Assembly: GCA_049323835.1 (NCBI GenBank)
Contig: JBMOOJ010000104.1
Span: 9,692-73,691, forward strand
Direction: 5' to 3'
Length of the DNA stretch: 64,000 nt
DNA from: Pseudomonadota bacterium
Lineage (GTDB): Bacteria > Pseudomonadota > Alphaproteobacteria > Rhizobiales > Xanthobacteraceae
A program made the position numbers and the translations under genes. The notes beneath the pieces are model-generated. The model was not told where the DNA came from. It did no database searches and was given only the letters and a program-made list of their open reading frames with translations. Below, piece by piece: positions 39,171-50,437 of this stretch (its first letter is position 1; each line of letters opens with the position of its first letter).

Positions 39171-40163
39171 TCAAAGCGTCGGCGTCTTCGTCACCGACAC
39201 GCGGATCGCCGCCCACGGAGCAGCATCGTCGAGCTCGATCCGGCCGCCGCGCATCGACAGGCCGAGCTTCTGCCAAATGCCCGCAAGATCGGGTTCCATC
39301 GGCTTCAGCCCCATCTCGTCATAGAGCCGCGTCATGACGTCGACGCCGACCGCCGCATCCGCCGTTTCCAGCACCTTGCGCAACGACCACGAGCGTACCT
39401 CGTGGTTGCCGCCGGCGGCGAGAACGCCACGCATGGCGTCCTGCAATCCAAAACGGTTGTCGGTGCGCTTGCGGATTTCGAGATCGGCGATCATGCAGAA
39501 GATCGCGCCGCCCCAATAGGTGCGGCCCCAGGTCGGCGTGTGATCGAGTCCGCGATCGCCGCCGCCCGGCATGCCGTTCGGCATCCCGCGCATCATCGAG
39601 CGCCAGACATCTTCCGGTGCGAGCTGTCCCGCCTGCACGCGCGCGATCGGCTCGATATAGACGGCGAGCCCCTCCGACAGCCAGTTGTGCCGCTCGCGCA
39701 GATCGGGCAGCGCCAGATGCACCATCTCGTGCACCATAATCCAGTCGCGCAGCAGATCCGCTTCGCTGGCATCGCTGCCGAGCGTAATGCGAATCGCGCC
39801 GCCGCGATAACCCCATGTGGTGCCGCCCTGCACGCCGCGTCCGTTCACCGGAACGATGAGCAGTTTAACCTTCTTCAGCGGAAACTGTCCGTAGTAGGTC
39901 GAAACGGCTTCCGCGGATTTCCTGACCCAGCCGAGCACCGTCTCCTGCGGCAGCGCGATGCGCCCCGGCGCGAACGCCACCTGAATGGTGCCGCCCCCGG
40001 CCTGAATTTCGGTCTTCGGCAGACGCTCGAATGCGTCGTAAGGCATTCCGACACCGCCGAGATACTCTGACTGTGCGCCCGAATGGGTCGAGAACAGGCC
40101 GATGAGCAAGCCGGCTCCGACCAGCGCCACCGCGACAATGCGCAAACCGCGTGAGCGCATCAT
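39171..40163 (-). CDS. Exported HExxH zinc metallopeptidase (gluzincin, M1-like active-site region)
   Basis: N-terminal signal/TM segment (LRIVAVALVGAGLLIGLF). HEMVH followed by NWLSEGLAVY, resembling the HExxH..W-L-x-E-G motif of clan MA. The start overlaps the upstream stop. Confidence 0.65.
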   Translation of the reverse strand: MMRSRGLRIVAVALVGAGLLIGLFSTHSGAQSEYLGGVGMPYDAFERLPKTEIQAGGGTIQVAFAPGRIALPQETVLGWVRKSAEAVSTYYGQFPLKKVKLLIVPVNGRGVQGGTTWGYRGGAIRITLGSDASEADLLRDWIMVHEMVHLALPDLRERHNWLSEGLAVYIEPIARVQAGQLAPEDVWRSMMRGMPNGMPGGGDRGLDHTPTWGRTYWGGAIFCMIADLEIRKRTDNRFGLQDAMRGVLAAGGNHEVRSWSLRKVLETADAAVGVDVMTRLYDEMGLKPMEPDLAGIWQKLGLSMRGGRIELDDAAPWAAIRVSVTKTPTL

Positions 40164-41011
40164 CTGCCAGTACTCCCGCTGCCGGTTCGGCGCTCCGCAG
40201 AGTCTCCGGACTGCCGCGCCGCGAATTGCTGCGCATGGCCGATGACATCTTCCATCATTGCTGCGAGTAGAACGTCGCCCTTCGCGCGCGTCGCCAGCGT
40301 CGGATCGCCGAAACTGCCGGAGGGACTGTAACTCGGCGACGAGGAATCGCTGCGCGTCAGCGGCCCCAGCACATTGACGCGATCGGCCGGACTGGCTTCA
40401 GCCCGCGCCATCGTCACCACATGCGGTGCGATCGCCAGCATCAGCGAGGTTTCGAGTTCGTCCGCGTGGCTGCCGTGACGCTGCTCGGCGAGCCTGCTTG
40501 CGGCCGCGCGATAACGAGCGCCCTGATGCACGCGCAGATGCAGCACGTCGCTCGGCTTGAATGATGCAAGGGCGCGCTCGGTCGGCGCGATGGTCGAAAT
40601 GCCGGTATCGATCACGATCAGTGCGCGGACACCGGATGCGAGAATGCCTGCCGCGATTTCAGCTATCAGCGATTCATAGACCGGCGCAGAGAGCGAACTG
40701 CTGCCAGGATAATCCACGAACGCCGGATAGTGTCCGTATGCGACCGTCGGCCAGATCAGCGCATCGATCTTCTCGGCGATCCGCGCGGCGAAGAACTCTG
40801 CCTGAATCTGATCCGTGTTCATCGGCAGATGCAAGCCATGCTCCTTGCTGCCTGCGCCGATCGGCAGCAGCGCCACCGCGCCTGTCTTGATCCGGGCCTC
40901 AATCGCATCCCAAGTCATTTTCGCAACAGCATGACGATCGCCATTGACCGAGCCGCGGAACAGACTGGTCAACCCGGACGTCGCGTCTGCAAGGGTGAAC
41001 GGAGCTTTCAT
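40160..41011 (-). CDS. Creatininase-family amidohydrolase/peptidase
   Basis: LLPIGAGSKEHGLHLPMNTD and HADELETS metal-ligand motifs of the creatinine amidohydrolase fold. The start is uncertain (41011 or 40918). Confidence 0.75.
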   Translation of the reverse strand: MKAPFTLADATSGLTSLFRGSVNGDRHAVAKMTWDAIEARIKTGAVALLPIGAGSKEHGLHLPMNTDQIQAEFFAARIAEKIDALIWPTVAYGHYPAFVDYPGSSSLSAPVYESLIAEIAAGILASGVRALIVIDTGISTIAPTERALASFKPSDVLHLRVHQGARYRAAASRLAEQRHGSHADELETSLMLAIAPHVVTMARAEASPADRVNVLGPLTRSDSSSPSYSPSGSFGDPTLATRAKGDVLLAAMMEDVIGHAQQFAARQSGDSAERRTGSGSTGR

Positions 41012-41145
41012 GCGGCCATCGTCATCCGCCAAACATTGTATGCGATTGGACGCGAGACGCACGTGCGCGGCAATTCACATTCCTGTTGCGCGCATGACAA
41101 TTTGGTTAGTTTCGGACGCGATCCGCACGGCGATGCGGCGTGCTG

Positions 41146-41931
41146 CTAGGCGCCGACGGCGACGCCACCAAGCAGGCCGGACGTCACCCAGCCGCGCAGA
41201 TAACCTGCGCCACGGCCGGCGGCGTTGTCCGGATCGTCGTAGGTCGCCAGCATCGAGCACAGTACGCCAAACGGAATGCCGGCGGCAGCCTCGTCCCACA
41301 TCATCGCCTCTTCCACGGTGAGTTCGCGGAACATCGGCGTGTTGTCCTGCCGCCAGACGAGAATGCGGCAGGGTTCGCCGAGCACCTCCGCATCCGGCGG
41401 CGTCTCTTCGTTCTTGAGCGCGATCCAGATGGCGGCTGCGTTGGTCGTGAGATCGAAACGCTTCGCTGTGGAATGCGGCTTGAAGCGCAGGTCGTTCCAG
41501 GACTCAGGCGGCACTGCCGCGATATCCTCGATTGCGACGACGTCACCATCCGTCGCATCGAATACGTCGTTGAGCGCACGCTCGAGTTCGGCGAGTTCGC
41601 AGATCGCGGGGTAGTCCGAATAGGGCTCGGTCGCGCGCAGGAAATCCGGAATGCCGCGCGAGTACCAGCGCAGGTTCGGATGCTCGGACGGCTTCGCCTG
41701 AACATAGGCCTTGCCCATGGCGTCGAACTCGTCGTCGCCGAGATACGTGTGCAGGTATGGATGGTCGTTGCCGATCGCCTCGACAAGGCGCGAGGAGTAA
41801 GCGTAGCGATAGACACCGAACAGGACGTCGCGCTTTTCCTTCGGGCTGTCGAGAATCTCGGCCAGAACGGAATCGTCACCGCTCATGATGCAGCGCTGGA
41901 ACTCGTCCTGAAGCTGCTGAAAGTTCTTCAT
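41146..41931 (-). CDS. bufC: DUF2063 protein, BufC-like partner of the MNIO enzyme
   Basis: 261 aa with the DUF2063 N-terminal pattern (FQ..I..GD....L..I......R..VYRYAYSSRLVEAIGNDHPYLHTYLGDDEFDAMGKAYVQAKPS..LRWY). ATG 41931 overlaps the DUF692 stop (ATGA). Confidence 0.8.
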   Translation of the reverse strand: MKNFQQLQDEFQRCIMSGDDSVLAEILDSPKEKRDVLFGVYRYAYSSRLVEAIGNDHPYLHTYLGDDEFDAMGKAYVQAKPSEHPNLRWYSRGIPDFLRATEPYSDYPAICELAELERALNDVFDATDGDVVAIEDIAAVPPESWNDLRFKPHSTAKRFDLTTNAAAIWIALKNEETPPDAEVLGEPCRILVWRQDNTPMFRELTVEEAMMWDEAAAGIPFGVLCSMLATYDDPDNAAGRGAGYLRGWVTSGLLGGVAVGA

Positions 41932-42866
41932 GCCTGCTGCCGCACCTGCTCCGTCGCCGGCAACACCTCCGCTGCGATGTCGCGCAGCTTCTGGACCTCG
42001 ACCAGAAGCTCGTCGAGCGGTGGGATATTGTCGTCGCGCTCGATAATGGTCGACACCGCACCGAAACGTTTCAGTGCAGCCGCGTACAGGTCCCAGACGT
42101 CGTCGCAGACGGGATGATCGTGCGTATCGACGATGTGCGTATCCATGTGCGTGTGGCCGGCCATATGGAACTGCACCACGCGGTCGCGTGGAATGCCTTC
42201 GAGGAACGTGTGCGGATCGTAGCCGTGATTGAAGGCGCTGACGTAGACATTGTTGACGTCGAACAGCAGCCAGCAGCCTGTGCGCCGGGACAGCTCGCTC
42301 AGAAACTCCCACTCGGTCATGTCGGGGTTCGCGAACTGGACATAGGTCGACACATTCTCAAGCACGATCTCGCGGCCGAGGAAATCCTGCACGAGATTCA
42401 CACGGCTCGCCACGTGATCGAGCGATTCGGTCGTATAGGGAATCGGCAGCAGGTCATGCAGGTTCTTTCCGTGCACGCCGGTCCAGCAGAGATGATCGGA
42501 AACCCATTTCGGTTCGACGCGCCTGGCGAGATCGCGCAGTTCGGTCAGGTAGTCATAGTTCGGCGGCGCAGTCGACGCGATCGAGAGCGACACACCATGC
42601 ATCACCACCGGATACCGCGCGCGGATACGTTCCAGCATCTGCAGCGGCTTGCCGCCGGGGATCATGTAGTTTTCGCTGATGACCTCGAACCAGTCGATCG
42701 GCGGATCGCCGTCGAGGATGTCGTTGTAGTGCTGAGGACGAAGGCCAAGCCCGAAGCCAAGGAATGGCGGCTTGGCGCCGGACAGTTTACTCTCGCTCAG
42801 ACGCGCCGTCTGGCGCGGAGCAGATGAAGCCTTCTCTGCGGTCGCAGTGGCGGCGCTGGACGTCAT
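41928..42866 (-). CDS. bufB: DUF692 / MbnB-like multinuclear non-haem iron oxidase (MNIO), BufB-like
   Basis: 312 aa. Motifs: FLGFGLGLRPQHYNDIL, DWFEVISENYM, VVMHGVSLSIAS, WVSDHLCWTG, LLPIPYT, VLENVSTY and IERDDNIP. GGAGG SD lies before ATG 42866. Confidence 0.85.
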   Translation of the reverse strand: MTSSAATATAEKASSAPRQTARLSESKLSGAKPPFLGFGLGLRPQHYNDILDGDPPIDWFEVISENYMIPGGKPLQMLERIRARYPVVMHGVSLSIASTAPPNYDYLTELRDLARRVEPKWVSDHLCWTGVHGKNLHDLLPIPYTTESLDHVASRVNLVQDFLGREIVLENVSTYVQFANPDMTEWEFLSELSRRTGCWLLFDVNNVYVSAFNHGYDPHTFLEGIPRDRVVQFHMAGHTHMDTHIVDTHDHPVCDDVWDLYAAALKRFGAVSTIIERDDNIPPLDELLVEVQKLRDIAAEVLPATEQVRQQA

Positions 42867-42941
42867 CCGGTGGCCTCCAAAGTCTCGATCGATCGGCGTC
42901 GGAACCGCGATACGATTACGGTTCCTAATTACCACAAAGAG

Positions 42942-42972
42942 AAAAGGACTGGCAGAGGCTGCCAGTCCTTTT
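42942..42972 (-). terminator. Intrinsic terminator/attenuator between precursor copy A and bufB
   Basis: AAAAGGACTGGCAG, loop AGG, CTGCCAGTCCTTTT: a 14-bp stem. On the minus strand it is followed by CTCTTTG. It starts 14 nt after the copy A stop. A second hairpin GGAACCG-N11-CGGTTCC lies at 42901-42925. Confidence 0.5.
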
Positions 42973-42985
42973 CGGAAGAAGACGC

Positions 42986-43243
42986 TTACGACTTCTTGAA
43001 GTTGCCCTTCGCGGCGTCGCACTTGTCCTTCGACATCATCGCAAAGCCCTGACCCTTGCAGGCGTTCTGGCCTTTGCATGCATTCGCGCCGCCCTTGCAG
43101 GCGCCCTGGCCCTTGCAGGCGTTCGCGCCGACGCACTGACCTTCGCCAGCAGCCTGGGCGTTCGCCGAAACAGTCGCGCCAGCGAGGAAGAGAGCAGCAG
43201 CGGCGACGGCGAGCGTCGCACCAGACTTCGAATTGAGCTTCAT
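42986..43243 (-). CDS. bufA: Secreted 6-Cys RiPP precursor, copy A (BufA2-like bufferin precursor)
   Basis: 85 aa: MKLNSKSGATLAVAAAALFLAGATVSANA|QAAGEGQCVGANACKGQGACKGGANACKGQNACKGQGFAMMSKDKCDAAKGNFKKS. GGAGGA SD lies 7 nt upstream. Confidence 0.8.
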   Translation of the reverse strand: MKLNSKSGATLAVAAAALFLAGATVSANAQAAGEGQCVGANACKGQGACKGGANACKGQNACKGQGFAMMSKDKCDAAKGNFKKS

Positions 43244-43373
43244 GGTAATCCTCCAGAGGTTTTCGACAGAAAGAACTGTCGCGATAACAGCTACGGGCGA
43301 ATTCAAGATCGTTTCAGGAATCGGCAGGAAGAAAAATATTCTCGCACCCGCACTTGTCATCGCGACGACAGAC

Positions 43374-43399
43374 GGGGACCGGCTACGCAGCCGGTCCCC
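43374..43399 (-). terminator. Stem-loop downstream of precursor copy B
   Basis: GGGGACCGGCT, loop ACGC, AGCCGGTCCCC: a perfect 11-bp stem, 14 nt after the stop. Confidence 0.45.
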
Positions 43400-43412
43400 G
43401 CTGCGTTCCGGA

Positions 43413-43670
43413 TCAGGACTTCTCGAACTTGCCCTTGACCTTGTCGCACTCGGCCTTGCTGACCGAGGTGAAGCCCTTGCCCTTGCAGGCGTTCTGGCCC
43501 TTGCAGGCGTTCGCACCGCCCTTGCAGGCGCCCTGGCCCTTGCAGGCGTTCGCGCCGACGCAGTGGCCCTTGTCCTGGGCCTGGGCGACCGACGTCATGG
43601 CCGCACCGGCCAGGAACAGGGTCGCAGCGGCAACAGCGATGGTCGCGCCCGATTTCGAATTCAGTTTCAT
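43413..43670 (-). CDS. bufA: Secreted 6-Cys RiPP precursor, copy B
   Basis: 85 aa: MKLNSKSGATIAVAAATLFLAGAAMTSVAQA|QDKGHCVGANACKGQGACKGGANACKGQNACKGKGFTSVSKAECDKVKGKFEKS. GGAGGA SD upstream. Confidence 0.8.
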   Translation of the reverse strand: MKLNSKSGATIAVAAATLFLAGAAMTSVAQAQDKGHCVGANACKGQGACKGGANACKGQNACKGKGFTSVSKAECDKVKGKFEKS

Positions 43671-44046
43671 AACGAGTCCTCCAGAAGACATGATTGACTT
43701 GGATAAGTCACTTGAACTGGACATCGCCGGAGCGGCTTCGCACGCAAATGGATGTGCACGCCGACGCTCAGGCTCAATCGAGGTGCCGTGCAGCATCCAA
43801 GGATGAGAACGGTCACGAGGAGCATTACGCCGGGAGCTGCGTTTGGTTACTTCGGGCTTGAAAATAATTCTTCCGCTACCGCCTGCCGCGAAACGTCATG
43901 CCTGCGGAGAACGGCGATCACGAAAAGGTTGACTTAGCTCGTTGCGGCGTTCCGCCTGGCGCAAGAGCAACAGCTGTCACCTGTCCGCCACAGGCATCTG
44001 ACAGGTACGCTGGAAACAGGCCCGCAAAAACGGCGTAGAAACGGAA

Positions 44047-44073
44047 AGGAGGCCGGCAACTAGCCGGCCTCCT
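44047..44073 (-). terminator. Intrinsic terminator downstream of precursor copy C
   Basis: AGGAGGCCGGC, 5-nt loop, GCCGGCCTCCT. On the minus strand it is followed by TTCCGTTTCTACGCCGTTTTT. Confidence 0.5.
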
Positions 44074-44084
44074 TCGCATCGTTA

Positions 44085-44342
44085 TCAGCTTGCGACGAAC
44101 TTGCCGCCGACTGCGGCGCAGCTCTTCGCATCGGTCAGCGAGAAGCCCTGGCCCTTGCAGGCATTCTGTCCCTTGCAAGCGCTCGCCCCGCCCTTGCAGG
44201 CGCTCTGGCCCTTGCAGGCATTGCCGACCATGCACTTGCCCTTGGCCGCCTGAGCGTTAGCGGTCGAAACGGCAGCACCTGCCAGGAACAGCGCGGCAGC
44301 GGCGACAGCGAGGGTGGCACCCGACTTGGAATTCAGCTTCAT
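44085..44342 (-). CDS. bufA: Secreted 6-Cys RiPP precursor, copy C (most diverged)
   Basis: 85 aa from ATG 44342: MKLNSKSGATLAVAAAALFLAGAAVSTANA|QAAKGKCMVGNACKGQSACKGGASACKGQNACKGQGFSLTDAKSCAAVGGKFVAS. GAGGAG SD upstream. Confidence 0.8.
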   Translation of the reverse strand: MKLNSKSGATLAVAAAALFLAGAAVSTANAQAAKGKCMVGNACKGQSACKGGASACKGQNACKGQGFSLTDAKSCAAVGGKFVAS

Positions 44343-44673
44343 GACGATCTCCTCTGATGTGTTGAGGCGCATGGACGACGGAATTCTTCGGACCGCCCAC
44401 GCACCGTTTGCTTCGGAGATCCCTCCGGCAGGTCAATCAAAAGGAACGCAATGATGCAGTGCGAGCCCGGGGATGAGCCCACGCGCGTTCAAGACGTTCC
44501 CATCGCTCCCACACCTCCCCGGACGAACCATCCGGTGGCGAGATACGAGGCACCTTCCGTTCGGGGTGCAGGACGGCGAAAAAAATCTGCCGGCCGTGGA
44601 GCGGCGGAACGCCGCACTGAAGTATCGGGGCACCTCCAGCGAAATCGTCAACGCAAGATTTGCTTGCAACGCA

Positions 44674-44705
44674 ATATGCCGGATCTCTTGCGAGATCCGG
44701 CATAT
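44674..44705 (-). terminator. Perfect 14-bp palindrome downstream of the DUF255 gene (terminator or operator)
   Basis: ATATGCCGGATCTC, loop TTGC, GAGATCCGGCATAT. It starts 28 nt after the stop at 44733. No clear T tract follows. Confidence 0.4.
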
Positions 44706-44732
44706 CCATATCCTGACGCCGAACAGCTGCAA

Positions 44733-46538
44733 TCACTTCATCGATTGCCGCTGTGGCTTGAGCTTCGCCATCTGCTCGACGGTGTCTTTCAGTTCCTTCG
44801 CGTTGAATGACGGGAAGGAGCAGATTCGGTTGCTGCACGCGAACGCAGCCGCCTGGCCGAGGTCCGGATATTCGACATCCGGGTTCGGCAGTTTGCCTTC
44901 GCGCAGATCGAGCCACTCGAGCCGCTTGTAGCGCGCCGGATAGGCCCGGGCGACGCTGTGCAGATCGCGTGCCTTCGTGTCGTCCTTGCGGCCGACGATC
45001 GTGATATGGGTCGGCTCGACCGCGAGTTCTTCATCGGCGAGCAGCACGCCCGGCAGCGGCCGCACCAGTTCGGCGGTCATGCCGGCGAGATACTTCATCG
45101 CGTGCACCGCATTGTCGTGATATGCCTCGCTGCCGAAATACCGGTCGAGCAGATTGAGGAAGCGCGCGACCTGAATCTGATCTTCCATCAGCTTGGCCGG
45201 CTTCGCGAATACGCCAACCTTGGCTTCGCTGGTCTTTGAGGTAAAGAAGCCGCCGCCGGCCTCGTCCTTGAAGTTGGCGATGACGAAGTCGCCGGCCTTG
45301 CCCGCCGCGGTCAGCCATTCGCGGTTACCTGTCGCGCCATACAGGTCGAGAAACGCCTGCCCCATGGTGGCGGTATCGCCGAGGAACGGGCCGCCGCGAT
45401 CCTTCGCGCCATGCTTGAAGCCGCCATCCGGCAACGAACGGTTGGCGATCACCCAGCGCGCCGCGCGCTCCATCCGCTCGAGCGTCGCCGCATCCTTGGT
45501 GACGCCGTAGTAGGCGGCAAGTCCGCTGATCGCCCAGCCATTTTCACGTGCGTAAAGGTTCTTGTCGATGCGCGGCATGCCAAGCTTGCGGCGCTCCGCG
45601 TCGTTCAGCGCGTAGAAGGCATGGCCATCGACCTCGCGATTGAGATCGGCGTCCTGGCTGACATAGTACGCGCCCTCGGGCCCGAGCATCATCGACGTCA
45701 GGTAGCGCTCGATGTCCTTTGCCGCCTTCAGGTACTTCGGGTCGTTCCAGCGCGCATATGCCTGGCTGTACTGACGCAGATACTGACCCTGGAACGACAT
45801 GATCTTTTCGAAGTGCGCCTTCTGCCAGGAGCCGGCTTCGGAGTATTGATAGACGCCGCCCCACACCGGATCGATCAGCGCGATCGCGGCATCGAGCGTC
45901 TGGCGTGCGCGCTTGACCGCTTGCGCATCCCCCGCTTCCGCACGCAGCATCGCATAGTCAAAGCTGTCGGCGTCGATGTACTTCTGGTTTTCGCCCCAGG
46001 CGCCGATCTTGTCCTCATAGGATTCGTCGTAGCGCTTGATCAGCGCCTCGCGCTTCTCCTTCGAGAGGAACTTCTCCTTGGCCGGCTCGACAGCGAACGC
46101 CTGCCCGATCGACGGGCCCGGCGTCGGATCGTCGATCACCGCTTGCAGGATCGACGCCATCCGCTCCGGCTCGATGTAGCCTCGGAATTTCGCGATCTCG
46201 TTGCCGTCCGGCCCAAAGATGATGGTCGCGGGCCAGCCCCAGTCGCCGTAACGGCTGGAGAGATCCGGATTGGCGTCCTGATCGGCACGGACCGGAATGT
46301 ATTTCGCAGCGAGCAGCTCGTTGACCTTCTTGTCCGCGTAGGTGGTTTTGTGCATCACATGGCACCAGTGACACCACACCGCCTCCATATCGAGGATGAC
46401 GAATCGCTTCTCCGCCGTCGCCTTGGTGAAGATATCCTCACTCCATTCGCTCCATTTGACGCCGCCCTCGTCGGCGGCGAAGGCAGGCAAAGCGAACAGC
46501 GCGGCGATGGCGAGTGCCAGGACCCGGACGAACTTCAT
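44733..46538 (-). CDS. Secreted thioredoxin-fold DUF255 (YyaL-like) protein
   Basis: Signal peptide MKFVRVLALAIAALFALPAFA. CxxC in the DUF255 context (DMEAVWCHWCHVMHK). Long alpha/alpha-toroid-like C-terminal domain. 601 aa. Confidence 0.8.
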   Translation of the reverse strand: MKFVRVLALAIAALFALPAFAADEGGVKWSEWSEDIFTKATAEKRFVILDMEAVWCHWCHVMHKTTYADKKVNELLAAKYIPVRADQDANPDLSSRYGDWGWPATIIFGPDGNEIAKFRGYIEPERMASILQAVIDDPTPGPSIGQAFAVEPAKEKFLSKEKREALIKRYDESYEDKIGAWGENQKYIDADSFDYAMLRAEAGDAQAVKRARQTLDAAIALIDPVWGGVYQYSEAGSWQKAHFEKIMSFQGQYLRQYSQAYARWNDPKYLKAAKDIERYLTSMMLGPEGAYYVSQDADLNREVDGHAFYALNDAERRKLGMPRIDKNLYARENGWAISGLAAYYGVTKDAATLERMERAARWVIANRSLPDGGFKHGAKDRGGPFLGDTATMGQAFLDLYGATGNREWLTAAGKAGDFVIANFKDEAGGGFFTSKTSEAKVGVFAKPAKLMEDQIQVARFLNLLDRYFGSEAYHDNAVHAMKYLAGMTAELVRPLPGVLLADEELAVEPTHITIVGRKDDTKARDLHSVARAYPARYKRLEWLDLREGKLPNPDVEYPDLGQAAAFACSNRICSFPSFNAKELKDTVEQMAKLKPQRQSMK

Positions 46539-46740
46539 GGGAATTCCCCTTGATGATCCACGTTAAAGTCACGTGGGATGCGAGCAGAGCGATGCCGGAA
46601 ATACGGGCCACGCTCCGATCCGGCTCAGGGGGACAGAAGGGTCACGCAAACGTGAGGCTGCTGCGCCACCCGCGCAAGGCCGAGCGTCCGGACTACGCCG
46701 GACGCGCGTCAAGCTCTGCGCACCGGAGCAGTCGCGATGC

Positions 46741-47229
46741 CTATTTTCCGCTCTCGTTACGCCCGCTGCTGCGCAACAGCAGGTAATCGAGCGACACCTT
46801 GCCGGGGCCAGCGACGGCGAGCCAGAAGAACACCGCCATGTAGGTGAACTCCTCGAAGCCCAGCAGGATATCGAGCGAGCTCTCGCCGGCCGAGTAGGAC
46901 TTCATCCAGTCACCGAATTTCGCCACCTTGACCGCAACGATCATGACGAAGGCGAGTTGCGCCGCGAAGATGCGCGTGAACAGGCCAAGGATCAGGGCGA
47001 TGCCGCCGAAAAACTCGACGCCGGACGCGAACGGCGTAAGAAGAGCGGGGAACGGAATGCCCCACTCGGTGAAGTTCTGGATCATCACCGGCAGGTTGTT
47101 GAGCTTCTGCCAACCCGTCCACATGAAGACGTAGCCTACCACGAGACGCGCGTACAAAGGCCCGGCCCACGAAAAATGCGCGGCGATCCGGGCAGGCAGG
47201 GCAATCAGCAGGTTAACGAGAAAATCCAT
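46741..47229 (-). CDS. DoxX-family membrane protein
   Basis: 162 aa from ATG 47229, 4 TM segments, DoxX-like sequence (..LVVGYVFMWTGWQKL..GGIALILGLFTRI..). Confidence 0.8.
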   Translation of the reverse strand: MDFLVNLLIALPARIAAHFSWAGPLYARLVVGYVFMWTGWQKLNNLPVMIQNFTEWGIPFPALLTPFASGVEFFGGIALILGLFTRIFAAQLAFVMIVAVKVAKFGDWMKSYSAGESSLDILLGFEEFTYMAVFFWLAVAGPGKVSLDYLLLRSSGRNESGK

Positions 47230-47263
47230 GATACCCCCAGATGCTTGTCCCTCAGGCGCCAAA

Positions 47264-47319
47264 CTTCAAACGACCAAGGTTTCAAACCACTAAAACCTTC
47301 AACTACCAAGGCTTCAAAC
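47264..47319. promoter_or_regulatory. Four direct repeats (C/T)TTCAA(A)C with ~16-nt period upstream of doxX
   Basis: CTTCAAAC at 47264, TTTCAAAC at 47280, CTTCAAC at 47297, CTTCAAAC at 47312. The longer unit ACCAAGG(T/C)TTCAAAC occurs at 47273-47287 and 47305-47319. The array lies 35-90 nt upstream of the doxX ATG. Confidence 0.3.
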
Positions 47320-47381
47320 GCTCGGCGTGACACTACGGCTCACGAGGTATTCGAACGGAAACGGATGGATGTTACGGCCGC

Positions 47382-48116
47382 CTATCCGAAATTTGCCAGC
47401 GCCGGGAAGGTTTCCAGCAGCCAGATGCTCATGCTGGTGATCGAGCCGGTGAGGAACGCGATGCCCGTTACAACCATCAGGACACCCATCGCCCGCTCGA
47501 CATTGTGCAGTTGCCGTTTCATGCGGTTGAAGGCGGCCGAGAAACGATCAATCGCGAACGCGGCAATGAGGAACGGAATGCCGAGGCCCGCCGAATAAAC
47601 CGCGAGCAGCCACGCGCCCTTTGTAACGGTCGCATCGGCGGCGGCAACCGACAGGATCGCGGCGAGGATCGGCCCGATGCACGGCGTCCAGCCGAAGGCG
47701 AACGCAAGTCCCATGACATAAGAACCGGTGTAGCCAACCGGCTTCGACATCGTCGCGCGCCCTTCCCTCATCAGAAACGCAAAGCGCGTCAGCCCGAGGA
47801 AGTGCAGGCCCATCAAGATAATGAGAACGCCGGCGACGATCGAGAACTGCGCGGAATAGGCGCGGATGAAGCCGCCGATGTAGCTCGCGCTGGCGCCGAG
47901 GGCGACGAACACCGTCGAGAAGCCGAGCACGAAGCAGAGCGCCGAGAACATGATGGCGCTCTTCGAGGCCGACGAGATATCCTCGTTGTTCGCGTTGTTC
48001 AGCGTCGCGCCGGTGAGGTAGATCAGATATGGCGGCACCAGCGGTAGCACGCAGGGCGACAGGAAGCTGATAATTCCGGCGAGGAACGCGGCGGGGACCG
48101 AGATATCGCTACCCAT
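47382..48116 (-). CDS. ccdA: CcdA/DsbD-family thiol-disulfide electron transporter (cytochrome c biogenesis protein transmembrane region)
   Basis: AAFLAGIISFLSPCVLPLVPPYL and FAFGWTPCIGPILAAIL: the two conserved membrane Cys motifs of the family. Confidence 0.8.
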   Translation of the reverse strand: MGSDISVPAAFLAGIISFLSPCVLPLVPPYLIYLTGATLNNANNEDISSASKSAIMFSALCFVLGFSTVFVALGASASYIGGFIRAYSAQFSIVAGVLIILMGLHFLGLTRFAFLMREGRATMSKPVGYTGSYVMGLAFAFGWTPCIGPILAAILSVAAADATVTKGAWLLAVYSAGLGIPFLIAAFAIDRFSAAFNRMKRQLHNVERAMGVLMVVTGIAFLTGSITSMSIWLLETFPALANFG

Positions 48117-48352
48117 GGGACATCTGACCTTCAAACTGCGCGCCGCGGGCGCGGCGGAAAACATGGCAATCAGCGTAATCTACGAACTCGGCCGCTCGCG
48201 GTTTCGAAACCCGGGATCGAACTTACCAGCGCTAAGGACCGCAAGGACAAGCTTGGCTTCGGGGGCAGCGATACATACGTTAGCCTAAGCTGGCCACCCA
48301 GAATCTCGCCGCTTCCCCGTCATATCAGTCACTTGAAGTTGAAAAGCCGTTT

Positions 48353-50437
48353 ATGATCCGCCTCTCGCCACCCTCCGCGCCGCGCCGTCCGCATCAATTC
48401 ATCGCTCATGGCGTCACCGTCACCGACGACTATGCTTGGTTAAAAGATCCGGATTGGCAGAAGGTGCTGCGCGAGCCCGCGCTGCTCGACGCCGATATCC
48501 GCGCCTATCTCGAAGCAGAGAACGCATTTGCAGAGCAGCTGCTCGGTCATACGAACGCCCTGCAGAAGACGCTCGTCGCGGAGATGCGCGGCCGCGTCAA
48601 GGAGGACGACTCGAGCGTTCCCTCCCCCGATGGCGCATTCGCTTACTTCAGCAAGTATCGGGAGGGCGGCCAGCATCCGCTGATCGGCCGCATGGCGCGC
48701 GCCGGCGGCAGCGAGACGTTCATCCTCGACGGCGACGAACTCGCGAAACACAGCGACTACTTCCAGCTGCGTGGCTCGCGGCATTCGCCGGACCACGCGC
48801 TGCATGCCTGGAGCAGCGACACCAAGGGATCGGAATACTTCACCATCCGCGTGCGCGACTGGGCAACGGGCAACGACCTCGACGACAGCATCGAGGAAAC
48901 CGATGGCGCTGTGGTCTGGGCCGCAGACTCGAAGTCCTTCTACTACGTCAAGCTCGATGATAATCACCGGCCGCTGAAGGTCTATCGCCATCGCCTCGGC
49001 ACCGCGCAGGTGGACGACATTCTTGTCTACGAGGAAAAGGATTCAGGCTGGTTCACCCATATTCATGAAAGCGCCAGCGGCCGCTTCTGCGTCATCGCCG
49101 GCGGCGATCACGAAACGTCCGAGCAACGGCTGATCGACCTGGCCGATAGCAACGCGATACCGCACCTCGTCGCCGAACGCGAGGACGGCGTACAGTACTC
49201 GGCTGCCGACCGCGGCGATCAGCTCTATATCCTGACCAATGCTGACAAGGCGATCGACTTCAAGATCGTGACAGCGCCGCTCGCTGCGCCCGGGCGCGAG
49301 AACTGGTGTGATCTGATCCCGCATCGCGCGGGCGTCTTCGTGCTCGACTTCGAGCTTTTCGCCAATCACCTGGTGCGGCTCGAGCGCAAGGACGCCCTGC
49401 CCTCGATCGTCATCCGCGACCTGCGGACGAGCGATGAGCACGCGATCGCCTTCGACGAGGCTGCGTATTCGCTCGACACGCTCGGCAGCTACGAGTTCGA
49501 CACGACGAACCTGCGCTTCTCGTACTCATCAATGACGACGCCGTCGGAAGTCTTCGACTACGACATGGAGAAGCGCACGCGCATTCTGCGCAAACGTCAG
49601 GAAATTCCGTCCGGCCACAACCCCGCGGACTACGTCACTACGCGCATCCTCGCCACGGCGCATGACGGCGCACAGGTGCCGGTCTCAATTCTCTATCACA
49701 GGACAACCACGATCGACGGAAGCGCGCCGCTGTTGCTGTACGGCTACGGCTCCTATGGCCACGCCATGCCGGCGTCGTTCTCATCCAACCGGCTGTCGCT
49801 GGTCGATCGCGGCTTCGTCTACGCTATCGCGCACATCCGCGGCGGCTCCGACAAGGGTTGGAGCTGGTATCTCGACGGCAAGCGCGAGAAGAAGACCAAC
49901 ACCTTCGACGATTTCGCCGCCGCAGGCCGCGCGCTGATCGAGAAGAAATACACCTCGCCGAAGAAGATCGTCGGCCACGGCGGCAGCGCCGGCGGCATGC
50001 TGATGGGTGCGGTTGCCAATCGCGCGGGCGACTTGTTCGGCGGCATCGTCGCCGAGGTGCCGTTCGTCGACGTGCTCAACACGATGATGGACGATACCTT
50101 GCCGCTGACGCCACCGGAGTGGCCCGAGTGGGGTAATCCGATCACCGACGAAGCCGCGTTCAAGACGATCCTGTCGTACTCGCCTTACGACAACGTCGAG
50201 GCGAAATCCTATCCGGCGATCCTGGCGATGGGCGGCCTCACCGATCCGCGCGTGACGTATTGGGAGCCGGCGAAGTGGGTGGCGCGGCTGCGCGCGACCA
50301 TGACCGGCGGCGGGCCGGTCGTGCTGCGAACCAACATGGGCGCAGGCCACGGCGGCGCATCCGGCCGCTTCAACCGGCTGGACGAAGTCGCGATCGTCTA
50401 TGCGTTCGCACTATGGGCAGTGGGGCTGGTGAAATAA
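48353..50437 (+). CDS. ptrB: S9A prolyl oligopeptidase-family protease II (oligopeptidase B)
   Basis: 694 aa. N-terminal beta-propeller region (DDYAWLKD..), catalytic GGSAGG motif and a C-terminal hydrolase domain. Confidence 0.85.
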   Translation: MIRLSPPSAPRRPHQFIAHGVTVTDDYAWLKDPDWQKVLREPALLDADIRAYLEAENAFAEQLLGHTNALQKTLVAEMRGRVKEDDSSVPSPDGAFAYFSKYREGGQHPLIGRMARAGGSETFILDGDELAKHSDYFQLRGSRHSPDHALHAWSSDTKGSEYFTIRVRDWATGNDLDDSIEETDGAVVWAADSKSFYYVKLDDNHRPLKVYRHRLGTAQVDDILVYEEKDSGWFTHIHESASGRFCVIAGGDHETSEQRLIDLADSNAIPHLVAEREDGVQYSAADRGDQLYILTNADKAIDFKIVTAPLAAPGRENWCDLIPHRAGVFVLDFELFANHLVRLERKDALPSIVIRDLRTSDEHAIAFDEAAYSLDTLGSYEFDTTNLRFSYSSMTTPSEVFDYDMEKRTRILRKRQEIPSGHNPADYVTTRILATAHDGAQVPVSILYHRTTTIDGSAPLLLYGYGSYGHAMPASFSSNRLSLVDRGFVYAIAHIRGGSDKGWSWYLDGKREKKTNTFDDFAAAGRALIEKKYTSPKKIVGHGGSAGGMLMGAVANRAGDLFGGIVAEVPFVDVLNTMMDDTLPLTPPEWPEWGNPITDEAAFKTILSYSPYDNVEAKSYPAILAMGGLTDPRVTYWEPAKWVARLRATMTGGGPVVLRTNMGAGHGGASGRFNRLDEVAIVYAFALWAVGLVK

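Follow-up and report, generated by a model that had tools for sequence, protein, structure and literature searches.

Three tandem bufferin precursors with a near-identical core: probably an invariant motif written in preferred codons

Introduction

How can two paralogous genes remain almost identical in the DNA that encodes their cores, while the silent positions in their signal peptides have drifted to saturation? The question is raised by three small genes for Cys-rich peptides, here called copies A, B and C, that lie in a stretch of 64,000 nucleotides (nt) from a Xanthobacteraceae bacterium (GenBank assembly GCA_049323835.1, contig JBMOOJ010000104.1, positions 9,692 to 73,691). This whole stretch is referred to below as the window, and coordinates are counted from its first letter. 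An initial annotation, made from the letters alone, offered two explanations for the near-identity of the cores: gene conversion, or a constraint operating on the core at the level of its nucleotides.

The answer developed here is that the near-identical cores of A and B represent an invariant enzyme-target motif in strongly preferred codons, not recent DNA copying. More broadly, we consider it quite probable that the locus is a Buf2-type bufferin cluster, in which an old triplication has evolved slot by slot, the core is invariant and codon-biased, and three cassettes are served by one BufBC pair. The bufferin family and its tandem precursors are, of course, already known, and the observation is real but ordinary. 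What is added here is the age of the duplicates, the orthology of their slots, the ordinary cause of the core identity, the promoter and terminator layout of each copy, and a mosaic gene in a sister lineage.

The three precursor genes

The genes are the following.

42986-43243, minus strand: bufA2 copy A (proximal slot), 85 amino acids, 78.9 bits against NF050166, tail AMMSKDKCDAAKGNFKKS
43413-43670, minus strand: bufA2 copy B (middle slot), 85 amino acids, 82.0 bits against NF050166, His before Cys I, tail TSVSKAECDKVKGKFEKS
44085-44342, minus strand: bufA2 copy C (distal slot), 85 amino acids, 73.5 bits against NF050166, "distal type" GKCM.GNAC ... GGKFV.S
43049-43126, minus strand: internal core repeat of copy A, 2 x 39 nt (13 amino acids), ANACKGQGACKGG / ANACKGQNACKGQ, carrying the four Cys-Lys motifs

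The NCBIfam model NF050166 is an equivalog for the "BufA2 family periplasmic bufferin-type metallophore," with a curated cutoff of 60 bits. All three copies exceed it, with matches that span residues 8-82, and this identifies them as BufA2-family bufferin precursors. As the initial annotation had reported, they are collinear and equal in length: 258 nt each, head-to-tail on the minus strand, and aligned without a gap. Six Cys residues occupy identical positions in A, B and C (37, 43, 49, 56, 62 and 75), and each of the central four (43, 49, 56, 62) is followed by Lys-Gly. By inspection, all three begin with a putative Sec signal, with MKLNSK as the basic n-region, about 15 hydrophobic residues in a row, and AxA sites at 29-32.

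Relatives were drawn from 80 BufB-linked loci in species-representative genomes (designated here by L numbers), where bufA2 genes were found with a hidden Markov model (HMM). The six-Cys and Cys-Lys pattern is kept across 37 relative bufA2 genes, and the "distal type" of copy C is common to the distal copies of Bradyrhizobium-like loci. A search of the PDB sequences with precursor A returned no relative.

The 13-residue core repeat is also present in copies B and C, and its two halves differ at 5-10 of 39 nt; in copy B they are still 87-92% identical (92.5% by self-BLAST). One relative, the distal copy of L009 (5209-5433), is short of exactly one 39-nt, 13-residue unit and is thus a 4-Cys variant; recombination between the internal repeats is the likely cause.

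In the databases, the exact copy B protein is present as MFZ5733998.1, annotated "hypothetical protein." The exact copy A and copy C proteins have no match in a collection of 15 billion proteins, which does contain copy B, BufB and BufC of the same metagenome-assembled genome; the deposited record may leave A and C unannotated, or may call them from other start codons.

Leaders, cores and tails

The near-identity is concentrated in one run.

43089-43135, minus strand: 47-nt run in copy A, gene positions 109-155, identical to copy B 43516-43562
43516-43562, minus strand: partner of the run in copy B, identical to copy A 43089-43135

This run, and the five differences in 86 nt that the initial annotation had counted by hand between 43053-43138 and 43480-43565 (gene positions 106-191), were both recovered; the differences fall at 108, 156, 162, 165 and 171. 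Over the whole 258 nt, A and B differ at 60 positions. Copy C is the most diverged, as had been claimed, at 81 nt from A and 76 from B, with Ser/Met substitutions and the tail GGKFVAS. The two spacers (169 and 414 bp) were said to be unrelated, and self-BLAST bears this out: similarity between them extends to about 12 nt at most, at the ribosome-binding site.

Divergence was then apportioned by region, using the Nei-Gojobori proportions of differing synonymous (pS) and non-synonymous (pN) sites. Between A and B, the signal peptide (codons 1-24) has a pS of 0.73, and its changes are indeed mostly synonymous (15, against three non-synonymous). The core (codons 37-67) has a pS of 0.30 and a pN of 0.014. 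The contrast between leader and core at synonymous sites is significant (Fisher p=0.013).

The leaders had been described as drifting. This holds for their synonymous sites, which are saturated, but not for the protein: over the first 24 residues pN is 0.02-0.06, so that the leader is as conserved as the core in its amino acids, and only its silent positions drift. What truly diverges between paralogs is the C-terminal tail of 18 residues and, around the signal-peptidase site, a linker of 12 residues; pN there is 0.33-0.60.

For a Sec signal, such purifying selection on the signal peptide MKLNSKSGATLAVAAA.LFLAGA is unusually strong. A lineage-specific Val13 is common to the signal peptides of A, B and C. 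The pattern of substitution hints that the signal peptide may do more than direct export; it might, for instance, be recognised as a leader under native conditions, a role that work on the Caulobacter bufferins left open (PMC11626156).

Codon usage and the invariant core

If gene conversion were responsible for the frozen core, the contrast between leader and core should be a property of copies that share a genome. A codon alignment of 37 bufA2 genes from 20 alphaproteobacterial genomes was used here, and the measure was the fraction of codons for the same amino acid that differ. Between genomes this fraction reaches 0.50 for leader codons and 0.23 for core codons; the corresponding values within genomes are 0.47 and 0.20. 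The leader exceeds the core in every pair among the 37 genes, whether within or between genomes. Because the contrast is equal within and between genomes, the frozen core is not special to the genome of the window. Orthologs, among which conversion between paralogs plays no part, show the same contrast in their synonymous rates (8/59 in the core against 18/62 in the leader, p=0.047).

Distances between individual cores make the same point. The core of window A stands 7 nt in 93 from that of window B, and likewise 7 in 93 from L018_5566, which belongs to another genus. The core of window B is closer to L016_5615 (5 in 93), L001 (6) and L008 (6) than it is to window A (7).

The biochemical composition of the two regions accounts for this. 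The core is built from the two-fold codons of Cys, Lys, Gln and Asn, together with Gly and Ala, and across the family its usage is extreme: AAG 95%, TGC 95%, CAG 98%, GGC 82%. With a bias so strong, about 90% identity is left even when synonymous divergence is saturated. The leader is built from Ala, Leu, Gly, Thr, Val and Ser codons, for which several alternatives are tolerated (GCC/GCT/GCA; GGC/GGT). Since these four-fold codons have acceptable alternatives, synonymous saturation becomes visible in the signal peptide.

This can be put as a null model. When the codons of A and B are drawn independently from the core usage of other genomes, 8.6-9.6 core differences are expected, and 7 are observed (P 0.18-0.30). 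The repeat within each core serves as an internal control: the core is an ancient repeat of 2 x 13 residues, and the identity of its halves agrees with the codon-bias account.

Thus, of the two explanations offered in the initial annotation, constraint on the core survives, in the form of an invariant motif plus codon bias; conversion is not supported for the genome of the window.

Age and orthology of the copies

Close relatives (BufB at least 90% identical) were retrieved through exact-protein look-ups. L081 has the same three slots as the window, L091 and L092 have three slots, and L095 has two. The distance from each window copy to its L081 counterpart is small (12 nt for A, 22 for B, 27 for C), compared with 59 nt between window A and window B. 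The block comprising B, spacer and A is collinear with L081 and L093, at about 84-86% identity over 800 nt.

In a bootstrapped neighbour-joining tree, the A copies form a clade at 100% (including those of L081 and L093) and the B copies a clade at 99%. A distal clade, also at 100%, joins window C to the distal copies of Bradyrhizobium-like loci, L058, L010, L016, L018, L001 and L095. The clustering of copies by slot, at 99-100% bootstrap, shows an old triplication whose copies are not undergoing homogenisation in the window. As judged from these sequences, the split between C and the A/B pair is ancient, the C type predating the divergence of Bradyrhizobium-like genera, and A and B had already separated when the window organism diverged from L081 and L093. 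From that point on, each slot has evolved independently.

The initial annotation had argued against a recent simple tandem duplication, and this view is upheld: saturated synonymous sites, unrelated spacers and orthologous slots rule it out. Independent acquisition of the copies, which it had named among the observations that would count against its reading, was looked for in the related genomes and is ruled out by conserved synteny and by the slot clades.

Among the 80 representative loci, one precursor was found in 49, two in 16 and three in one (L016), with fused two-domain 12-Cys precursors in four (L057, L071, L075 and L080); since the window copies served to build the HMM, distant precursors may be undercounted in these figures. 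Copies have been lost in some lineages: L093 (3185-3442) and L094 (1527-1784), two separate assemblies, carry an in-frame TAG in copy B (CAG>TAG). In L008, the distal copy (2216-2479) is frameshifted near its 3' end.

Gene conversion as a possible alternative

The hypothesis of conversion deserves to be considered on its own terms. It holds that concerted evolution between A and B keeps the core homogeneous while the flanks escape. The 47-nt run is the longest seen within any genome, and a permutation test of the GENECONV type on polymorphic sites gives p=0.0235 for the A-B pair, a value that is uncorrected for three pairs and assumes uniform constraint. Further, the family does undergo conversion. 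The slot-A gene of L091 (3493-3750) and of L092 (3492-3749) is a mosaic: A-type at position 18, B-type over 30-100, A-type at 108, B-type over 171-220, and A-type again at 229-230. This mosaic retains the A-type promoter motif and the downstream hairpin. It is a genuine conversion tract, with B as donor, covering gene positions of roughly 30-220.

Against this, core differences in the window are not reduced relative to the codon-bias null, and the A-B core distance is alike in three genomes (7, 7, 9) and across genomes (5-9). Cores in other genera are as close to the window cores as these are to each other, or closer. The slot clades are firmly supported, and paralogs within the genome are not more alike than orthologs (59 nt for A and B of the window, against 12 and 22). 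At diagnostic sites, where A-type and B-type orthologs show fixed differences, no conversion tract is found in window A or window B; the discordant sites are scattered, at 112-113 and 242 in A and at 58, 78, 87 and 129 in B. Conversion thus occurs in the family, yet not detectably in the window, and as the cause of the A-B core identity we regard it as unlikely.

The codon-bias account does not, of course, dispose of everything, and several observations weigh against it or against the larger picture of three maintained copies. The 47-nt run is somewhat longer than the codon-bias null predicts (P 0.025-0.043). It depends on a single site, gene position 129, where window B has a derived TGC that matches A and all other B orthologs have TGT; either a micro-conversion from A or simple mutation towards the preferred codon could account for it. 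Under window-wide codon usage, 11.2+-2.5 core codon differences would be expected and 6 are seen, so that the bias in the core exceeds the window average. The account further relies on a presumed translational selection. Last, L093 and L094 have two slots, with copy B interrupted at codon 32 and copy C gone, so that some copies, at least, are dispensable.

A core more biased than the window average might also carry some further function in its nucleotides: an mRNA structure, a target for a small RNA, or an overlapping antisense gene. Long antisense open reading frames (ORFs) do overlap the precursor genes, but these are expected by chance in high-GC DNA, and an Rfam search of 40000-49000 gave nothing below E=0.1. 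The core bias runs towards the genome's own preferred codons, as translational selection predicts. An extra function of this kind is therefore highly improbable, the least credible of the explanations considered. As to mRNA structure in particular, folding of the three cores against permutations of synonymous codons gave z scores of +0.19, +0.31 and -0.40; with z about zero, it is ruled out.

The repeat in natural populations

The 47-nt run leaves a trace in independent data. Among short-read contigs from Logan (within L082-L090), five that come from separate runs and match the window at 99.5% identity or better start at 43118, which is position 126 of gene A and 30 nt inside the run. This offset agrees with k-1 for an assumed k of 31. 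Two further contigs start at 43135, gene position 109, the first nucleotide of the run. These breaks confirm that the A/B repeat exists in natural populations. They also mean that tandem bufA2 arrays fragment k-mer assemblies of short reads, and tandem bufferin precursors are probably undercounted in metagenomes.

Promoter motifs and hairpins

Each precursor gene appears to have its own signals for transcription and translation.

43292-43316, minus strand: variant promoter-like motif TGAAAC-N15-CGTA upstream of A, kept 43-46 nt before the A-slot ATG in L081, L091 and L093
43826-43850, minus strand: promoter-like motif GTAACC-N15-CGTA of the extracytoplasmic function (ECF; SigF) type upstream of B, the sole match in 64 kb, where 0.02 are expected
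44544-44569, minus strand: tentative promoter-like block, GCACCC-N16-CGTA, some 200 nt before C, kept in the diverged DNA of L081 and L091
42941-42973, minus strand: terminator-like hairpin with U-rich tail between copy A and bufB, -26.2 kcal/mol, z -5.5
43365-43406, minus strand: strong hairpin with a poor U tail after copy B, -38 kcal/mol, z -4.6
44040-44080, minus strand: terminator-like hairpin with U-rich tail after copy C, -30.6 kcal/mol, z -4.9

The motif upstream of B resembles the SigF site of Caulobacter, GTAACC-N16-CGAA (PMC3511200), from which it differs in having N15 and CGTA. It is kept in L081 and L093 within DNA that has otherwise diverged, and in seven Bradyrhizobium-like loci (L006, L009, L010, L011, L012, L030 and L058) it stands upstream of both tandem copies. 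The block before C is weak, its -35 element matching GTAACC at four of six positions. All three copies have a GGAGG ribosome-binding site, and a stem-loop lies within about 15 nt 3' of each gene. The hairpin after A was found by a terminator scan, and it shows compensatory changes in L081, L093 and L091.

Two scans yielded little. A consensus scan for sigma-70 promoters and terminators returned two weak promoter-like sites and only one terminator, that after A; and phmmer with an approximate E. coli RpoE query, which is a weak test, found no match to an ECF sigma gene in the window.

Other elements were noted nearby. An inverted repeat, GGAACCG-N11-CGGTTCC, lies between the A hairpin and bufB (42880-42915, minus strand); its pairing is kept in L081 and L093, and its folding energy alone is not significant (z -0.12). 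The 5' untranslated region of window copy B (43671-43825, minus strand) has about 100 extra nt between the GTAACC motif and the ribosome-binding site, compared with L081 and L093.

The enzymes and their neighbourhood

Downstream of the precursors lie the genes for the putative modifying enzymes, and upstream lie genes for redox proteins.

41928-42866, minus strand: bufB, MNIO-family bufferin maturase, 385.2 bits against NF050167 (cutoff 310) and 377 bits against Pfam PF05114
41146-41931, minus strand: bufC, DUF2063 partner, 68.8 bits against Pfam PF09836, its start overlapping the bufB stop
44733-46538, minus strand: 601-residue secreted thioredoxin/DUF255-type protein (Pfam PF03190), directly upstream of the precursors
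46741-47262, minus strand: DoxX, BufD-like (Pfam PF07681), 69 bits against the HvfX-like model NF050144, below its cutoff of 80

A gap of 119 bp separates copy A from the start of bufB downstream. The bufC gene is present in all 80 of the related BufB-linked loci. Against the models for other MNIO subfamilies (HvfB, ApyH, MbnB, ChrH), BufB falls below every cutoff. Its relatives in the PDB are 3bww, TglH and MbnB, and by BufB similarity the locus has its relatives in Bradyrhizobium, Methylobacterium and other Hyphomicrobiales. The exact BufB and BufC proteins are in NCBI, where they are annotated only as DUF692 and as a DNA-binding-domain protein.

A DsbD-type membrane protein (DsbD_TM) is also encoded upstream on the same strand, and a thioredoxin-like gene lies directly upstream of the precursors in 17 of the 80 loci, as well as in L081, L091, L093 and L095. 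The gene neighbourhood extends beyond the published bufferin core: DsbD_TM, DoxX, thioredoxin/DUF255, bufA2 in variable number, bufB, bufC, a creatininase-family gene and a gene for a 330-residue protein (44733-48164 and 39171-41062, minus strand). The creatininase-family protein bears a weak resemblance to MftE (84 bits, cutoff 172), and its gene occurs in 15 of 80 loci; the 330-residue protein is secreted, has an HEMVH motif, and is encoded in 18 of 80. The landscape paper on MNIO enzymes makes no mention of these neighbours.

A further motif of the ECF-like type seen before copy A, GAAACC-N15-CGTA, is found 17 nt before the start of DsbD_TM (48181-48205, minus strand). This suggests that the redox module may be co-regulated with the precursors.

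Proposed function

In Caulobacter Buf2, the four central Cys residues are modified, Cys I and Cys VI form a disulfide, and the buf genes, which are members of the SigF regulon, are induced by copper (PMC11626156). The Cys-Lys group of substrates has also been described (PMC13097082). By analogy with these homologs, BufB (MNIO) and BufC (DUF2063) would oxidise the four central Cys residues in the cytoplasm to copper-binding 5-thiooxazoles, and Cys I and Cys VI would form a disulfide. The Sec signal peptide would then direct export, and the mature peptides would chelate excess periplasmic copper. Here, the amino acids of the core would constitute an invariant motif that is both enzyme substrate and metal ligand. 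Each precursor would be its own cassette, consisting of an ECF/SigF-like promoter motif, a ribosome-binding site, an ORF and a hairpin; we infer that the cassettes are co-regulated but separately transcribed. Expression of bufBC probably depends on transcripts that read through the terminator following copy A.

Why keep three? The initial annotation had suggested that one enzyme pair might yield as many as three different mature products. This seems plausible from the pattern of substitution, and it agrees with a remark in print on tandem bufferin precursors (PMC12452194). Among orthologs, pN/pS in the tail is 0.023/0.10 for A and 0.098/0.46 for C, compared with a pN of 0.33-0.60 between paralogs, and the N-terminal and C-terminal flanks specific to each paralog are kept among orthologs (A has Met-Met, B has His and C has Met). 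Tails that are conserved among orthologs, yet different between paralogs, favour three distinct selected products.

An alternative view holds that a single copy serves as a true substrate, and that the rest are decaying duplicates or unmodified secreted Cys-rich peptides. Decay is, of course, seen in the family: the premature TAG in copy B and the missing copy C of L093 and L094, the frameshifted distal copy of L008, and the distal copy of L009 with its lost unit. Published survey work, moreover, reports precursor genes whose functionality is uncertain (PMC12452194). In the window, however, all copies are intact, each with its GGAGG site, conserved promoter-like motif and hairpin; the six Cys and four Cys-Lys motifs hold identical positions in all of them; and all are under purifying selection among orthologs, with a core pN of 0-0.028. 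That two of these copies are relics seems to us quite unlikely, more so even than conversion.

Returning to three selected products, one may speculate that the three bufferins are specialised metallophores, each with its own ligands, charge and promoter, and that BufBC makes from them a graded or condition-specific mixture. We regard this as possible but doubtful. If it were so, the auxiliary ligands would be the Met-Met tail of A, the His next to Cys I in B, and the Met after Cys I in C. Selection would have maintained each copy from a time before the related genera split off, and each would be transcribed from an ECF-type promoter with a different -35 element (TGAAAC, GTAACC, GCACCC). The targets might be Cu(I) versus Cu(II), for example, or other soft metals, and the thioredoxin-like, DsbD and DoxX proteins would support the redox state.

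Implications

The general lesson is that near-identical DNA in paralogs can arise from an invariant motif in biased codons, without gene conversion. The locus also provides a well-resolved case of one MNIO/DUF2063 pair serving three long-maintained paralogs. It shows that a bufferin precursor can vary in its linker and C-terminal tail but not in its signal peptide or its four Cys-Lys motifs, information that is useful for work on substrate scope and for engineering.

Comparison with known systems

The closest known system is bufferin 2 of Caulobacter vibrioides (bufA2B2C2, CCNA_02999-03001; PMC11626156), for whose products the conversion of central Cys to 5-thiooxazoles and copper binding are known. 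The two share a six-Cys precursor, with a Sec signal that is putative in the window, and adjoining MNIO and DUF2063 genes; the Caulobacter genes are regulated by SigF, and a SigF-like motif is present in the window. They differ in that the window has three tandem precursors in place of one, with a promoter motif and hairpin apparent for each copy. The window also has DoxX, the DsbD-type protein and the 601-residue thioredoxin-like protein upstream and the creatininase-family protein downstream, and its mature N-terminus before Cys I is shorter.

Tandem bufferin precursors have been reported in a survey of biosynthetic gene clusters, which gives up to four Buf2 precursors per genome (Microb Genom 2025, PMC12452194), and the window is an instance of the same phenomenon. 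In the parts of that survey consulted here, the age of duplicates, the orthology of slots, codon-level divergence and per-copy promoters do not appear among the analyses, and the rule given there, of at most 10 bp between genes, would drop the thioredoxin-like and creatininase neighbours.

Two-domain Buf2 precursors with 12 Cys (Buf_6/12Cys) likewise double the 6-Cys module under one enzyme pair. There, the modules are joined in one polypeptide; here, they are separate genes, each with its own putative signal peptide, promoter and terminator.

In the prochlorosins, one enzyme, ProcM, acts on many ProcA precursors, whose leaders are conserved and whose cores are hypervariable. The bufferins of the window likewise have one modifying enzyme for several paralogous precursors, but the pattern is the opposite: the modified core is invariant, the linker and tail vary, and the signal peptide is conserved.

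Methanobactin, too, is made by an MNIO enzyme and a partner (MbnBC) that modify Cys residues of a ribosomal peptide, MbnA, to give a copper chelator. Here, BufB scores 83.5 bits against the MbnB model, below its cutoff of 325, and the systems differ in their precursor family, in their route of export (probably Sec in the window), and in the chemistry of their heterocycles.

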